Of a stretch of 64,000 nucleotides of DNA, positions 42,844 through 51,976 are shown piece by piece (positions within the stretch are counted from its first letter, which is position 1; the number at the start of each line of letters is the position of its first letter). The position numbers and the translations under genes are program-made. The DNA comes from Escherichia coli. Lineage in GTDB: Bacteria > Pseudomonadota > Gammaproteobacteria > Enterobacterales > Enterobacteriaceae. The notes below the pieces were generated by a model. It searched no databases. It was not told the DNA's origin and saw only the letters and a list, made by a program, of their open reading frames with translations. The stretch is from assembly GCF_002854065.1 (NCBI RefSeq), contig NZ_CP024147.1, one strand, 5' to 3'.

Positions 42844-43170
42844 ATGAAAAAACTGATTCTCATCGCCATGATGGCATCGGGGCTGGTGGCTTGTGCGCAA
42901 TCAACCGCGCCACAGGAAGACAGCCGTCTGAAAGAGGCATACAGCGCCTGTATCAACACCGCACAAGGTTCGCCAGAAAAAATTGAAGCCTGCCAGAGCG
43001 TGTTAAACGTGCTGAAGAAAGAGAAACAACATCAGCAGTTTGCCGACCAGGAAAGTGTACGCGTACTGGATTATCAGCAGTGTCTGCGTGCAACGCAAAC
43101 CGGAAATGATCAGGCGGTGAAAGCCGATTGTGATAAGGTCTGGCAGGAAATTCGCAGTAATAACAAATAA
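42844..43170 (+). CDS. chiQ: Small lipoprotein ChiQ
   Basis: 108-aa ORF with lipobox LVAC after a signal peptide; co-oriented 49 bp after chiP. Confidence 0.85.
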   Translation: MKKLILIAMMASGLVACAQSTAPQEDSRLKEAYSACINTAQGSPEKIEACQSVLNVLKKEKQHQQFADQESVRVLDYQQCLRATQTGNDQAVKADCDKVWQEIRSNNK

Positions 43171-43200
43171 GTGAGAGCTGTAACTCTCGCTTTTCTTATT
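43171..43200 (+). terminator. Intrinsic terminator after chiQ
   Basis: Hairpin gagag-ctgtaa-ctctc followed by T-rich tract. Confidence 0.5.
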
Positions 43201-43210
43201 TCCCTTGCAT

Positions 43211-43240
43211 AAAAAAGCCAACCTACAGGTTGGCTTTTCT
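43211..43240. terminator. Bidirectional terminator between chiQ and fur
   Basis: A-run, agccaacc-taca-ggttggct hairpin, T-run; serves fur on the minus strand. Confidence 0.7.
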
Positions 43241-43253
43241 CGTTCAGACTGGC

Positions 43254-43700
43254 TTATTTGCCTTCGTGCGCGTGCTCATCTTCGCGGCAATCGCCTTCGG
43301 CACAGTGACCGTAAAGATAGAGACTGTGGTTAGTCAGGCGAATGCCATGTTTTGCGGCAATTTCACGCTGACGCGCTTCGATGGAATCATCACTAAATTC
43401 GATAACCTTGCCGCAGTCGAGGCAGATCAGGTGATCGTGGTGATGTTGCTGTGTCAGTTCAAATACGGATTTACCGCCTTCAAAATTGTGGCGGGTGACG
43501 ATACCAGCGTCGTCAAACTGGTTCAGTACGCGATATACCGTAGCCAGACCAATTTCTTCACCCATATCGATCAGACGTTTGTATAAATCTTCCGCACTGA
43601 CGTGATGGTTGTCCGGCTCCTGAAGGACTTCCAGGATTTTTAAACGAGGAAGCGTTACTTTCAGGCCAGCTTTCTTTAGGGCGGTATTGTTATCAGTCAT
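43254..43700 (-). CDS. fur: Ferric uptake regulator
   Basis: 148-aa ORF with Fur metal-binding motifs (HHHDHLICLDCGKVIEF ... HSLYLYGHC). Confidence 0.95.
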   Translation of the reverse strand: MTDNNTALKKAGLKVTLPRLKILEVLQEPDNHHVSAEDLYKRLIDMGEEIGLATVYRVLNQFDDAGIVTRHNFEGGKSVFELTQQHHHDHLICLDCGKVIEFSDDSIEARQREIAAKHGIRLTNHSLYLYGHCAEGDCREDEHAHEGK

Positions 43701-43779
43701 GCGGAATCTGTCCTGTTACTAAGCGGTTCACTTCATTAGAAGAAGTGACAGAATTTGCTCTTGAGATAATGCGTATCAT
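43693..43779 (-). CDS. uof: uof leader peptide (28 codons) translationally coupled to fur
   Basis: Minus-strand ORF MIRIISRANSVTSSNEVNRLVTGQIPHD whose stop overlaps the fur start; matches the described upstream-of-fur ORF. Confidence 0.55.
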   Translation of the reverse strand: MIRIISRANSVTSSNEVNRLVTGQIPHD

Positions 43780-43783
43780 TATA
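43765..43783. promoter_or_regulatory. Fur-box-like sequence at the uof/fur leader
   Basis: Minus-strand TATAATGATACGCATTATC matches about 16 of 19 positions of GATAATGATAATCATTATC; overlaps the uof start codon and a TATAAT hexamer. Confidence 0.45.
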
Positions 43784-43988
43784 GAATTGCCACGCCTAAA
43801 TGAAAACCACAAGTCCCTGGCAAATATTGTTAATAAAAACGTGGCACAGCTTACATTTACAACGGCAAGGCCACTTGAACACCGGGACATTGTACAGGTA
43901 CAACAGCAAAAGTTACAAATTTGTAGCAATTATTTTGATTGGCATTATCTATTAATACGGCGTAGACATGAGTCTACGCCGCATCACA

Positions 43989-44519
43989 TCAGGCATTGAG
44001 AATTTCGTCGAGATGCAACTCTTCAGAAATCTGTTTAACCCATTTTTCTACACGTTCAGCGGTCAGTTCCGGCTGACGGTCTTCGTCGATAGCCAGACCG
44101 ACAAAGTGGTCGTCATCTGCCAGACCTTTTGATGCTTCGAAATGATAGCCCGCAGTTGGCCAGTGACCAACGATGGTTGCACCGCGCGGTTCAATGATGT
44201 CGCGGATGGTGCCCAATGCGTCGCAGAAATATTCGGCGTAATCTTCCTGGTCACCACAACCAAACAGCGCAACCAGTTTGCCATTGAAATCAATCTCTTC
44301 GAGAGTCGGGAAGAAGTCATCCCAGTCACACTGCGCTTCGCCGTAATACCAGGTTGGGATGCCCAGCAGCAGAATGTCATAAGCTTCCAGATCTTCTTTG
44401 CTGCTTTTTGCAATGTCATGGACATCGGCAACGTCTTTACCAAGCTGTTTTTGAATCATTTTTGCGATATTTTCGGTATTACCGGTGTCGCTGCCGAAAA
44501 AGATGCCAGTGATAGCCAT
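43989..44519 (-). CDS. fldA: Flavodoxin 1
   Basis: Start set at [16 protein letters not shown] (FMN-binding loop; 176 aa); the ORF track extends 39 codons upstream. Confidence 0.92.
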
Positions 44520-44658
44520 GAGTGAAATAACCTCTTGAAACTTATTGAAATGGGGGTGGAAAATTGCCCACGGATAAAGGCAATCATAGCAGAACAGGCA
44601 GTCTTGCGGAATCAGCAAACGAGCAGGACTGCACACTGTGCTACATGAAAGTGGAAAT

Positions 44659-44952
44659 TTAAACGATGCCCTGACTACGCAGCGCCGCCAGTTGCTGCAT
44701 TAACATCTCTTCGATCAGTTCGCTACGGCTCATATTGCGCGATTCCGCCAGCTCGTTCAGCGCCTCGACAGCTTCCGCGTTCAGCTTCAGTTCGACACGC
44801 TTAAGGCCACGTACTTTGTCGCGTTTTAGTTGGTTGCGTTTATTAATACGCAGCTGTTCATCGCGCGAAAGCGGATTAGTTTTCGGTCGTCCCGGTCGAC
44901 GCTCGTGCGCGAACAGATCTAATGTCGTACGGTCCGTTTGTTCTTTGGCCAT
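44659..44952 (-). CDS. ybfE: Small DNA-damage-inducible protein YbfE
   Basis: Start set at [14 protein letters not shown] (97 aa); the ORF track extends 23 codons upstream. Confidence 0.75.
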
Positions 44953-45070
44953 GATCTTGGTGACTTCGGGGGAAACAATCAGCCAGGCCTCTGCCCGGAT
45001 GGATAGCGCGCCATAATACATCAGCGCGATGAGTCACGCCAACGCCCACGCGCGGAAAGCGACGCGGACG

Positions 45071-45086
45071 CTGGGTTTTTAATCAG
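45071..45086. promoter_or_regulatory. Candidate LexA (SOS) box upstream of ybfE
   Basis: ctgggtttttaatcag fits CTG-N10-CAG spacing, about 120 bp upstream of the chosen ybfE start. Confidence 0.3.
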
Positions 45087-45091
45087 TTGCG

Positions 45092-45856
45092 TTAATCATT
45101 GAGATAGCGACGGATAGCGCGTAATACCGCATCCGGTTTTTCAGCATGGACCCAGTGACCCGCGCCTGCAATCACATGCGCCCGTGCCTGTGGAAATTGT
45201 GCCAGTAAATCATCACGGTACTGCTCGCTAACATACGGAGAATTACCACCAGGGATAAACAGGGCAGGGTGATCCCATGCCGGGATTTTCTCCCAACCCA
45301 CAATATGCGGATACTGATCCCACAATACCGGCACGTTAAAGCGCCACTCCCCGTCAACAAAAGATTTCAACAGAAACTGAATCACCCCTTCTTCATTAAG
45401 ATGCTGGCGCATTATTGCTGCTGCTTGCTGGCGAGTTTGTGCGTCCGATTCACTGACCGCGTTGATAGCCGCGAAAATCTCATCATGACGGCGTACGTGA
45501 TAGTCGACCGGTGCGATATCGATCGCCACCAGTTTATCGATGCGATCGGGGGCCAGTGCAGTAAGTGCCATTACCGCTTTACCGCCCATGGAGTGACCGA
45601 TAAATGTTGCTTTGTCGATCTGCAGTGCATCCAGGGTATCAACAAGATCCTGCGCCATCGTCGGGTAATTCATTACCGGATCTCTCGGTGAAAGACCGTG
45701 GTTACGCATATCAACCTGGATGATATTGTGATCGTTTACCAGATCGCGAGCCAGTACGCCAAGGTTGTCGAGGCTGCCAAACAGACCATGGACAAGAACG
45801 ATGGGAGAATTATTGTGCTGGTTTTGTGCAGTTTGCGCGCGGATATTCAATTTCAT
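45092..45856 (-). CDS. ybfF: Alpha/beta-hydrolase esterase
   Basis: 254-aa ORF with nucleophile elbow GHSMGG. Confidence 0.9.
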   Translation of the reverse strand: MKLNIRAQTAQNQHNNSPIVLVHGLFGSLDNLGVLARDLVNDHNIIQVDMRNHGLSPRDPVMNYPTMAQDLVDTLDALQIDKATFIGHSMGGKAVMALTALAPDRIDKLVAIDIAPVDYHVRRHDEIFAAINAVSESDAQTRQQAAAIMRQHLNEEGVIQFLLKSFVDGEWRFNVPVLWDQYPHIVGWEKIPAWDHPALFIPGGNSPYVSEQYRDDLLAQFPQARAHVIAGAGHWVHAEKPDAVLRAIRRYLND

Positions 45857-46040
45857 GGCAAAGTTCTTTTTTTCGCGTTGTCGGGTTAGGGTATTATGTT
45901 GACCATTGTGCCACAGGGCTGCAACAAATAAGGTTTATTCCGAGTTTTTCTGCAAGCCAGGCTTGACGCTATCCGCTGCCGGGATTTATTCATATACTCC
46001 TGGCGACTTGTATTCAGCTAAGACACTGCACTGGATTAAG

Positions 46041-46586
46041 ATGAAAACGATTGAAGTTGATGATGAACTCTACAGCTATATTGCCAGCCACACTAAGCAT
46101 ATCGGCGAGAGCGCATCCGACATTTTACGGCGTATGTTGAAATTTTCCGCCGCATCACAGCCTGCTGCTCCGGTGACGAAAGAGGTTCGCGTTGCGTCAC
46201 CTGCTATCGTCGAAGCGAAGCCGGTCAAAACGATTAAAGACAAGGTTCGCGCAATGCGTGAACTTCTGCTTTCGGATGAATACGCAGAGCAAAAGCGAGC
46301 GGTCAATCGCTTTATGCTGCTGTTGTCTACACTATATTCTCTTGACGCCCAGGCGTTTGCCGAAGCAACGGAATCGTTGCACGGTCGTACGCGCGTTTAC
46401 TTTGCGGCAGATGAACAAACGCTGCTGAAAAATGGTAATCAGACCAAGCCGAAACATGTGCCAGGCACGCCGTATTGGGTGATCACCAACACCAACACCG
46501 GCCGTAAATGCAGCATGATCGAACACATCATGCAGTCGATGCAATTCCCGGCGGAATTGATTGAGAAGGTTTGCGGAACTATCTAA
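46041..46586 (+). CDS. seqA: Replication-initiation negative regulator SeqA
   Basis: Start set at [22 protein letters not shown] (181 aa); the ORF track extends 45 codons upstream. Confidence 0.9.
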
Positions 46587-48307: not shown

Positions 48308-49627
48308 TTAACCGTGTTTATTTTTCAGTTCAAAGCGTGGTGATACCAGACCATACAGTGTCCAACCAAGGAAGGTCACGATGGAACCGTACAGCATGGC
48401 TTCTTCCCCGGATGAGTACAGCGCATAAAAGCTGTACATCGCGCCAACAAAAGCAACAAAGTTTGCAACTTTCGCTTTTGAGGGGGGCACATTAGCGACC
48501 TTCTGAATAATGACTAATGCCGCCATTGACAGAATATACGGAATGATATTGGTCACCACGGCCAGGTTAACCAGCACGTTGAACTGACTGTTTAGCGACG
48601 GGCTAATCGTCATCAGCGCCAACCCGCTCTGGATAATCACAATGGTCAACATTCCCTGCACCGGTGCATCCACTTTGGTTACACGGGAGAAAATTTTAGG
48701 GAAGTAGCCTTCATCAGATGAAGATTTAAACACCTGGGCAATGGTGAACTGCCAGCCAAGCAGCGAACCGCAGCAGGACATCACCATCAGCGCCATAATG
48801 ACTTTACCCACTTCCGGCGTGAACATCTGCGCGAAGGCCAGACCAAATGGTGCCGTTGAATTTGCCAGCTCCATATTTGGCACAATCCCGGCAATCACGT
48901 TGGTGGAGACGATATAAATCACCGCCGCACCTAACGTACCGCCGAGTACCGCGATTGGCACATTACGTTCCGGGTTTTCCACTACATCAGTATTTGCACA
49001 CGCAGACTCCAGACCAAGAAAAGCCCACAGCGTCATAGCGATGGAAGAACCTACCGCACTGAAGAACGGTGCATGATGCGGATTCCAGGAATCAACGTAC
49101 AGCGTCGGGCTAAACCAGAACCAGCCAATAATGCACAGACCGACGACCGGAATAATGACTCCCCACACAGTAATGCTACTGATTTGCCCGGTAATGCGCG
49201 CACCACCAAAGTTAGCCACGGTACAAATCCACAGCACCCCGATGGTCGCAAGACCAATCTGCACTGGCGACAAACTCGCGCCGAGCAGTTCGGTGCCGTA
49301 ACCAACCGCCGAAATAGCAATCGCGACGTTAGCAATCAGCAGTGAGACGCCGTAGGTATAGTTCGCCATAAAGTTACCGGATTTACCGAAAGCATACTCG
49401 GCATAACCGCCCATACCTCCTGATTTACGGCTGAACATACCGCATTTTGCGAATGCCCATGCCAGTGCCATTGAGCCTACGGCTGTCACCAGCCAGGAGA
49501 TAATTGAGATTGTCCCAACTTCGGCAAGCTTTGTCGGCAGCATGATGATACCGGAGCCCATCATGTTGACCATCGTCAGTATGGTTAACTGAACGACGCC
49601 CATTTTGTTCGATTTAGCCTGACTCAT
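48308..49627 (-). CDS. potE: Putrescine-ornithine antiporter (APC family)
   Basis: 439-aa 12-TM ORF overlapping the speF stop. Confidence 0.93.
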   Translation of the reverse strand: MSQAKSNKMGVVQLTILTMVNMMGSGIIMLPTKLAEVGTISIISWLVTAVGSMALAWAFAKCGMFSRKSGGMGGYAEYAFGKSGNFMANYTYGVSLLIANVAIAISAVGYGTELLGASLSPVQIGLATIGVLWICTVANFGGARITGQISSITVWGVIIPVVGLCIIGWFWFSPTLYVDSWNPHHAPFFSAVGSSIAMTLWAFLGLESACANTDVVENPERNVPIAVLGGTLGAAVIYIVSTNVIAGIVPNMELANSTAPFGLAFAQMFTPEVGKVIMALMVMSCCGSLLGWQFTIAQVFKSSSDEGYFPKIFSRVTKVDAPVQGMLTIVIIQSGLALMTISPSLNSQFNVLVNLAVVTNIIPYILSMAALVIIQKVANVPPSKAKVANFVAFVGAMYSFYALYSSGEEAMLYGSIVTFLGWTLYGLVSPRFELKNKHG

Positions 49628-51822
49628 AATTTTTCCCCTTTCAGCAGGGTGCTTTGCGCATCACGAGGCTTGATGACATAGCACCAAACTTGCTTACGAC
49701 CATCATGTTCTTCGATATAGACACCCTGCAGCTCCGGTGCAAAACCTGGCAGCAGGTTGATCCCTTCTTCCAGAGCGCTGAAGTAACGCAGAACAGCACC
49801 ACCCCAGATTTCACCCGGAACAACACACAGCACACCCGGAGGATAAGGAAGCGCACCTTCGGCAGCGATACGGCCTTCAGCATCCGGCAGACGAACCAGT
49901 TCCACTTCACCGCGTAAATAGGCGTAGTTGGCTTCTTGCGGATTCATGCTGACGCGTGGGAAGTGCTCCTTACGGAACATCTCTTTTTGCAGTTGTTTCA
50001 CGTTGTGGCGGGCATACAAATCATGCATTTCCTGACACAACTGACGCAGGGTATAACCGGCGTAGCGCTCTTCATGCTGTTTGTAGATGGAAGGTAGCAC
50101 TTCTGCTAATGGCGCGTCGGACTCAAGCAGTTTTTCGAAGCGTACCAGCAGGGCAACAAGTTGCTGAAGTTTGGCCATATCTTCTGCCGGAGTCAGCAGG
50201 AAGAGGATGGAGTTAAGATCGCATTTTTCCGGCACTACGCCATTTTCGCGCAGGAAGTTAGCAAGAATCGTCGCGGGTACACCGAACGCTTCATATTCGC
50301 CGTTACGTGCATCAATACCTGGGGTTGTCAGCAACAGTTTGCATGGATCGACAAAGTATTGATTCTCTGCATAGCCTTCAAAAGAATGCCAGTGTTCCCC
50401 TGGTACAAACTGGAAGAAGCGCAGATCAACCGCAATTTGCGCTGTTTCATACGACTGCCAGGGTTTACCATCCACCAGTTCAGGTATGAACGGACGAATA
50501 TGCTGACAGTTATCGAGGATCAGTTTGCGGGCATTAATGCCATTTACCACACAATCCATCCACATATTACGACCGCTGACACCTTCATGCATTTTGGCGT
50601 TGATATCCAGTGCGGCAAACAGCGGATAGAACGGGCTGGTGGAGGCATGCATCATAAAGGCGTTGTTCATGCGTTTGTGCGGTACATAACGCTGTTGCCC
50701 TTTGATGTGGCTGTCTTTTTTATGGATTTGTGAAGTTTGAGAAAAACCAGCCTGCTGTTTATGTACGGATTGCGTAACCAGAATACCCGGATCGTTCTCA
50801 TTAAGATCCAGCAACAGCGGCGAACAGTCAGCCATCATCGGAATAAACTGTTCATAGCCGACCCATGCGGAATCAAACAGGATGTAGTCACACAGATGAC
50901 CAATTTTATCCACCACCTGGCGGGCGTTATAAATCGTACCGTCGTAGGTGCCTAGCTGAATCACAGCGAGGCGGAACGGACGCGCCTCTTTTGCCCGTTG
51001 CGGTGCAACTTCTGTAATCAGTTCACGCAGATAACTTTCTTCGAAGCAGTGCGCATCAATACCACCGATAAAACCATACGGGTTACGTGCTGTTTCCAGA
51101 TAAACCGGTGTTGCACCAGCCTGTAGCAAGGCCCCGTGGTGGTTAGACTTATGGTTATTGCGGTCAAATAGCACCAGATCACCCGGTGTCAGCAGGGCGT
51201 TTAAAACCACTTTGTTAGAAGATGAAGTACCATTTAAAACGAAGTAGGTTTTATCGGCATTAAACACTTTTGCTGCATGTTGCTGTGCAATGCATGGCGC
51301 GCCTTCGTGAATCAGCAGATCGCCCATCGCGACGTCGGCGTTGCACAAGTCGGCACGGAACAGCGCCTCACCAAAGTATTCCACAAACTGATTCCCCGCC
51401 GGATGGCGACGGAAAAATTCGCCGCCCTGATGACCGGGGCAGTCAAATGCGCTGTTGCCCTGATTGACATAATCGACCAGTGCGCGAAAGAAAGGTGGGC
51501 GCAGTTGAGTTTCATAATGGCTGGCAGCGGTTTCTAACTGACGACCATAAAATTCTTTGCGTGCTTCTCCATGTTCGAAGACACCAGAAATACGTGAAAG
51601 ATATTCTGCTGGTATACGTTCTTCATTTTCCGTTGCAATAAAAACAGGAATGTCATAGCCAGTAGCGTCTATTTCATCGAGTTTTCCACGTTCAACATCA
51701 CTGACTGATAAAATAATGGCGGCAACGTCAATATAATTACTTTCGTCTATATTCACGCATGCACGATGAGTGGAAAAACAATCCGGGCAAGAACGACTAA
51801 CGGCAATTTTTAATTCTGACAT
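49624..51822 (-). CDS. speF: Inducible ornithine decarboxylase (PLP-dependent, fold I)
   Basis: About 732-aa ORF of the Orn/Lys/Arg decarboxylase family. Start ambiguous between ATG at 51831 (MNKMSELK) and 51822 (MSELKIAV). Confidence 0.92.
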   Translation of the reverse strand: MSELKIAVSRSCPDCFSTHRACVNIDESNYIDVAAIILSVSDVERGKLDEIDATGYDIPVFIATENEERIPAEYLSRISGVFEHGEARKEFYGRQLETAASHYETQLRPPFFRALVDYVNQGNSAFDCPGHQGGEFFRRHPAGNQFVEYFGEALFRADLCNADVAMGDLLIHEGAPCIAQQHAAKVFNADKTYFVLNGTSSSNKVVLNALLTPGDLVLFDRNNHKSNHHGALLQAGATPVYLETARNPYGFIGGIDAHCFEESYLRELITEVAPQRAKEARPFRLAVIQLGTYDGTIYNARQVVDKIGHLCDYILFDSAWVGYEQFIPMMADCSPLLLDLNENDPGILVTQSVHKQQAGFSQTSQIHKKDSHIKGQQRYVPHKRMNNAFMMHASTSPFYPLFAALDINAKMHEGVSGRNMWMDCVVNGINARKLILDNCQHIRPFIPELVDGKPWQSYETAQIAVDLRFFQFVPGEHWHSFEGYAENQYFVDPCKLLLTTPGIDARNGEYEAFGVPATILANFLRENGVVPEKCDLNSILFLLTPAEDMAKLQQLVALLVRFEKLLESDAPLAEVLPSIYKQHEERYAGYTLRQLCQEMHDLYARHNVKQLQKEMFRKEHFPRVSMNPQEANYAYLRGEVELVRLPDAEGRIAAEGALPYPPGVLCVVPGEIWGGAVLRYFSALEEGINLLPGFAPELQGVYIEEHDGRKQVWCYVIKPRDAQSTLLKGEKL

Positions 51823-51976
51823 TTTGTTCATCTCTTTATTTCAGGTAATAGCAGGTCCTCAATTTCTCAAAGGAGAAATCGATCACGCCGGAAAAAAGCA
51901 AAGCTCCACCGCTGATAAATAAATCAGTAGTTTGCTTTTTGCAGATGCAATAACCCAGACCAGCCCGGTAACTGGC

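Follow-up and report, generated by a model that had tools for sequence, protein, structure and literature searches.

The sequence between ybfF and ybfE examined here is the weak LexA box of ybfE, which is already published and has been catalogued in lists of the LexA regulon since 2000. The identity of the site is secure. New in this study are the position of the box relative to a conserved promoter, its narrow phylogenetic spread, and its overlap with a ybfF stop codon, an A-tract, and a hairpin. On balance, the box is probably a genuine low-affinity LexA site that exerts marginal, condition-dependent repression.

The 64,000-nucleotide stretch of Escherichia coli DNA analysed (hereafter, the window) covers the fur-uof-fldA-ybfE-ybfF / seqA-pgm region. 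After chiP-chiQ come the minus-strand genes fur, uof, fldA, ybfE, and ybfF, and then seqA and pgm, which are encoded on the plus strand. Between ybfF and ybfE, the spacer matches MG1655 with 100% identity, and a 1.3-kb piece around the LexA-like site has a match in 5424 of 5426 complete E. coli genomes. The genes and the box are located as follows.

45092..45856, minus strand: coding sequence of ybfF (esterase)
45094..45092, minus strand: TAA stop codon of ybfF, 3 nt upstream of the LexA box
45069..45088, minus strand: LexA (SOS) box, 20-mer AACTGATTAAAAACCCAGCG, equivalent to NC_000913.3 712015-712034, with the CTG-N10-CAG core at 45071-45086
44952..44950, minus strand: ATG start codon of ybfE
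44659..44952, minus strand: coding sequence of ybfE, 97 aa, ribbon-helix-helix (CopG-type) protein

YbfE matches the Pfam family RHH_1 (E 1.7e-10) and an NCBIfam equivalog named "LexA regulated protein" (NF008671). The K-12 RefSeq record (NC_000913.3 711605-711898) now designates it "ribbon-helix-helix domain-containing protein YbfE". The older name persists in PGAP-annotated genomes and in NF008671, even in genera that carry no LexA-like box upstream of ybfE. RNA-seq operon mapping defines a ybfE-fldA-uof-fur operon that starts at the ybfE promoter, which shuts off in stationary phase.

Identity and score of the LexA box

A sequence-only reading of the window had pointed to CTG-N10-CAG spacing within 45066-45090 (GGACGCTGGGTTTTTAATCAGTTGC), between ybfF and ybfE, and had named ybfE as a member of the LexA regulon. 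The spacing is exact in the 16-mer CTGGGTTTTTAATCAG at 45071-45086, which is placed between the ybfF stop and the ybfE ATG and thus upstream of ybfE. The regulon assignment also holds: ybfE is so listed in the literature and in RefSeq/NCBIfam, and the exact 16-mer CTGATTAAAAACCCAG is tabulated under LexA as the ybfE site (PMC2585105), with Fernandez De Henestrosa et al. (2000) (Mol Microbiol 35:1560) as the reference. A 2019 review includes ybfE among the SOS genes. The box in the window and the ybfE LexA box of E. coli K-12 are the same object, identical in sequence and without any difference; the published heterology index (HI) is about 11, compared with 10.8 here, and the box has been termed a "predicted (weak) LexA box" at HI 11 (PMC11228462).

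The HI was calculated with a Berg-von Hippel heterology matrix derived from 18 LexA boxes (PMC3009722, Table 4), from which ybfE was excluded. The minus-strand 20-mer AACTGATTAAAAACCCAGCG scored 10.82. The original study reportedly gave the same ybfE 20-mer an HI of 9.27. Strong LexA boxes score 0.3-6, and the accepted weak boxes of polB, dinG, dinB, and ftsK have leave-one-out values of 11.4-12.8 (polB 12.6, dinG 12.8, dinB 11.8). The ybfE box is within the range of these accepted weak sites and below the working cut-off of about 15 for predicted LexA binding; an HI of less than 15 is cited in the literature as "likely to bind". The match to the LexA consensus had been described beforehand as weak, and matrix scoring had been proposed as the check; the score bears the description out.

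The main penalties in the 20-mer are A at position 6 (CTGA rather than CTGT/G), T at position 7, and G at position 20. No training site among the 18 has A at position 6 (penalty 3.43); T at position 7 carries a penalty of 1.82. Position 15 is C, a base shared by 7 of the 18 training sites. Seven of the ten spacer positions are A/T, arranged as an A-run rather than as alternating TA.

When both strands of the window were scored, the ybfE box was the top LexA-like site. First-order Markov random sequences with the transition frequencies of the window give an expectation of 0.46 sites scoring this well per 64 kb; hence, the site is not callable on sequence statistics alone. Allowing up to three mismatches, the consensus TACTGTATATATATACAGTA had no match in the window. 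The CTG-N10-CAG spacing itself was found 31 times, compared with 13.4 expected from dinucleotide-preserving shuffles, none of which had as many; frequent use of the codons CTG and CAG is the probable cause of the excess. With 31 occurrences in the window, the spacing by itself does little to single out SOS boxes in E. coli. Another CTG-N10-CAG with an A/T spacer, CGCTGATAAATAAATCAGTA, is located at 51910-51929, in an intergenic region directly upstream of a 735-aa minus-strand ORF (49624-51831). Its HI of 15.8 is too weak for a LexA-site call.

The ybfE box shares with the canonical SOS boxes of recA, sulA, umuDC, and lexA (TACTG(TA)5CAGTA) the CTG-N10-CAG core, an A/T-rich spacer, and an intergenic location upstream of a gene. 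It differs from them in having CTGA instead of CTGT or CTGG, in lying about 26 bp upstream of the -35 hexamer rather than over the core promoter, and in being unconserved across Enterobacteriaceae. Its heterology is comparable to that of the weak or atypical boxes of polB, dinG, dinB, ftsK, and symE (yjiW), and the published symE/yjiW box CTGATGATATATACAG has the same CTGA left arm (PMC2585105).

Promoter, stop codon, and hairpins around the box

Five further elements were located in the ybfF-ybfE spacer.

45083..45085, minus strand: TGA within the left arm CTGA of the box, in frame with ybfF; TG invariant in 70 sequences
45076..45082, minus strand: conserved TTAAAAA tract in the box spacer; AAAA invariant in 70 sequences
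45036..45076, minus strand (gene-sense): hairpin or inverted repeat of fixed length; 5' arm with CCCAG of the box, 3' arm with the -35 TTGGCG
45013..45042, minus strand: sigma70 promoter of the ybfE operon from the promoter scan, TTGGCG-18-TATTAT, followed by GC-rich GGCGCGC
44983..44998, minus strand: small hairpin CCGGGCAGAGGCCTGG in the ybfE 5' leader, followed by conserved CTGATTGTTTCCCCCGAAGTCAC; terminator-like match in the scan

TTGGCG-18-TATTAT was the only sigma70-like promoter returned by the promoter scan of the spacer, and identical hexamers were assigned to an RpoD-holoenzyme SELEX peak between ybfE and ybfF (Shimada et al., 2014). An alignment of 24 Enterobacteriaceae genera has invariant columns at CGTTGGC and TGTAT-AT--CGCGCT. 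The promoter region as a whole (45005-45044, minus strand), CGTTGGCG-N17/18-TGTAT(T/G)ATGGCGCGCT, is near-invariant across the 24 genera. The GGCGCGC stretch directly after the -10 hexamer resembles a stringent-type discriminator. Such a discriminator would be in keeping with reports that ybfE is shut off in stationary phase and at late times after UV.

With the transcription start placed 7 nt past the -10 hexamer (near 45006), the LexA box would span about -82 to -63, 26 bp from the -35 hexamer on its upstream side. It neither overlaps nor abuts the core promoter, be it the -35, the -10, or the predicted start. LexA operators that have been characterised are known to overlap the -35, the -10, or the start site. 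Because the ybfE site lies so far upstream of the core promoter, strong repression from it is unexpected. A promoter overlapping the box was sought and rejected: the scan gave only the downstream TTGGCG-18-TATTAT, and TAAAAA and GATTAA inside the box had no acceptable -35 partner by eye.

A LexA dimer would recognise the CTG and CAG arms of AACTGATTAAAAACCCAGCG, 10 bp apart, in the ybfF-ybfE spacer. The left arm CTGA in place of CTGT and the location of the site about 26 bp upstream of the -35 would together lead to low occupancy and weak repression, as is expected of a poor left arm combined with an upstream position. Here, weak repression is deduced from the upstream position, and membership of the LexA regulon is taken from the literature; the results obtained directly are the sequence of the box, its score, its placement with respect to the conserved promoter, and its phylogenetic distribution.

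Part of the box overlaps a former or present end of ybfF. In Citrobacter, Enterobacter, Kluyvera, and Phytobacter, the TGA at 45083..45085 is the stop codon of ybfF. In E. coli, the ybfF frame reads ...RRYLND*RN*, an earlier TAA preceding the in-frame TGA; ybfF of both E. coli and E. albertii ends at a TAA/TAG three codons ahead of it (45083-45094, minus strand). The invariance of TG in the box is therefore attributable to coding, as TGA is the ybfF stop codon in several genera. The invariant core of the box is accounted for by three features: an ancestral stop codon of ybfF, the A-tract, and a hairpin abutting the -35, of which the box holds the 5' arm.

That hairpin (45076..45036) folds on the sense strand with a dG of -27.1 kcal/mol (z -2.9), compared with -18.1 kcal/mol (z 0.02) on the other strand. 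It is formed by pairing of ACCCAGCG... with ...CGUUGGCGU, which brings the CCCAG arm of the box into pairing with the region of the -35 hexamer. Over 70 sequences, 71% of the hairpin cells are paired, compared with 33-54% in slid-partner controls, and 75 cells are doubly changed, compared with 21-53 for slid partners. Counts of G-U pairs are in favour of the sense strand (164 vs 69), which also has the more stable fold in 53 of the 70 sequences. RNAalifold returned no consensus structure for the 70-sequence alignment, and the sub-clade of Siccibacter, Franconibacter, and Mangrovibacter does not fit the hairpin. Taken together, the hairpin is moderately supported. An Rfam search over 43000-46500 gave no relevant family.

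Two terminator assignments for the hairpin were considered and rejected. A canonical intrinsic terminator of ybfF finds no support, as the hairpin lacks a following U-tract and is not called in the terminator scan. For a plus-strand (antisense) terminator consisting of the hairpin and TTTTT, the fold was no better than that of shuffles (z 0.02), and both G-U pairs and stability favour the sense strand. We infer that the hairpin is a stabilising structure at the 3' end of ybfF.

The small hairpin in the ybfE leader (44954-45006) is present in the minimum free energy structure; the leader overall has a z of 0.16, no better than shuffles in E. coli alone. Its arms vary in a complementary manner between genera, as judged by eye, and conserved TTGTTTCCCCCGAAGTCAC comes after it. 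This hairpin may be a leader or attenuator element.

Distribution of the box among the Enterobacteriaceae

A scan of one genome per species yielded 80 loci with ybfE orthologues, corresponding to 70 distinct sequences after removal of duplicates. These align without gaps from the end of ybfF to the -35 hexamer. Both arms of the box are kept in 15 of the 70, belonging to Escherichia, Citrobacter, and Yokenella. Within the 20-mer, the TG of CTG and AAAA are the only positions without variation; the first base of CTG differs among sequences, as does the entire CAG arm. The HI at the orthologous position was as follows.

Escherichia: 10.8
Most Citrobacter: 13.5
Yokenella: 15.1
Salmonella arizonae (CAT arm): 17.1
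Klebsiella, Kluyvera, and Raoultella: above 18

Across the 70-sequence set, the LexA box is not conserved at the orthologous promoter in related genera. A published report found no SOS box for ybfE in S. Typhimurium, and the narrow distribution suggested by the alignment is consistent with that absence. Within E. coli, 46 nt around the box show 100% identity in 5209 of 5422 genomes; E. albertii and a cryptic Escherichia clade share the exact 20-mer.

Two database records met in the scan have doubtful labels. NZ_JAAGWF010000077.1 (606 bp), which is assigned to the actinobacterium Geodermatophilus sabuli, contains an enterobacterial ybfE with 87% identity and is probably assembly contamination. 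In NZ_JAALBX010000018.1, labelled Citrobacter freundii M-21, the region upstream of ybfE is of the Atlantibacter type and not of the Citrobacter type; the label may be wrong.

Expression of ybfE and the explanations weighed

The original study is said to have retained ybfE after a Northern screen of lexA+, lexA(Def), and lexA(Ind-) strains. The published expression data conflict, and LexA control of ybfE via the box is disputed. DNA-damage induction of ybfE was the point on which the sequence-only reading had let the proposed site depend, and the published record divides on it. A PybfE-GFP reporter carrying the whole spacer was active after UV in E. coli, with measurable promoter activity and strong late down-regulation; the authors excluded PybfE from their analysis, suspecting the use of an alternative sigma factor. 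Nalidixic acid upregulated ybfE in Salmonella. AZT induced ybfE 4-fold in E. coli, an effect that persisted undiminished in lexA3; the lexA3 dependence was 0.74 (none) and the sspA dependence 2.9 (PMC11228462). For comparison, the lexA dependence in the same AZT/lexA3 data was 3.1 for polB, 6.9 for dinB, 2.5 for symE, 1.7 for dinG, and 1.7 for ftsK (PMC11228462). Ciprofloxacin caused no significant change of ybfE in E. coli K-12 and no induction in EHEC, for which no transcript fold change is listed and the protein values are 1.0 / -1.3. MX did not induce ybfE in Salmonella (0.9). In the UV tiling-array study of E. coli, ybfE is missing from the LexA motif table of induced genes (PMC3009722).

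It is possible, though we hold it the less probable view, that the resemblance to a LexA site is incidental and has no physiological LexA control behind it, the damage response of ybfE being due to other regulators or to growth-rate control through the GC-rich discriminator. In Escherichia and Citrobacter, CTG-N10-CAG would then arise by chance from the stop codon of ybfF, the A-tract, and the hairpin arm, and LexA might still bind weakly in vitro. Several observations argue for such a coincidence: the invariant columns are limited to TG and AAAA, with both arms in 15 of 70 sequences; TGA ends ybfF in several genera; CCCAG pairs with TTGG of the -35 in the -27 kcal/mol hairpin, which has moderate covariation support; and 0.46 chance sites are expected per 64 kb. 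The location upstream of the core promoter, the lexA-independent and 2.9-fold sspA-dependent induction by AZT, and the lack of induction by ciprofloxacin and MX point in the same direction. Against it, the reporter was active after UV, and the box outscores every other site of the window and has the right location, in the intergenic region upstream of its gene. The Northern screen also speaks against coincidence, ybfE having reportedly been retained.

A related proposal concerns the selected element in the spacer, which might be not the LexA box but a module that couples the 3' end of ybfF (termination or transcript stabilisation) to the downstream promoter. The LexA-like arms would then be a lineage-specific by-product with little regulatory weight. 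We regard this proposal as rather doubtful.

Least probable by far is that LexA, bound directly past the ybfF stop, serves as a roadblock or insulator that limits read-through from ybfF into ybfE-fldA-uof-fur rather than initiation: the box does begin 3 nt past the ybfF stop, upstream of the ybfE promoter, and no canonical intrinsic terminator follows ybfF (the hairpin lacks a U-tract, and the scan found none), but RNA-seq operon mapping starts the operon at the ybfE promoter with no evidence of ybfF-ybfE read-through, a weak operator makes a poor roadblock, and the arms are not conserved.

The reading that we prefer remains that of a genuine, low-affinity LexA site. Even so, a box upstream of the promoter, arms limited to Escherichia, Citrobacter, and Yokenella, and lexA-independent induction in RNA-seq suggest that ybfE is at best a marginal SOS gene. 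With the arms confined to these three genera, the name "LexA regulated protein" is unsupported by a box in most of the Enterobacteriaceae genomes that carry it. As ybfE heads an operon with fldA and fur, damage-dependent control of ybfE, if real, would tie flavodoxin and the regulation of iron to the SOS response.
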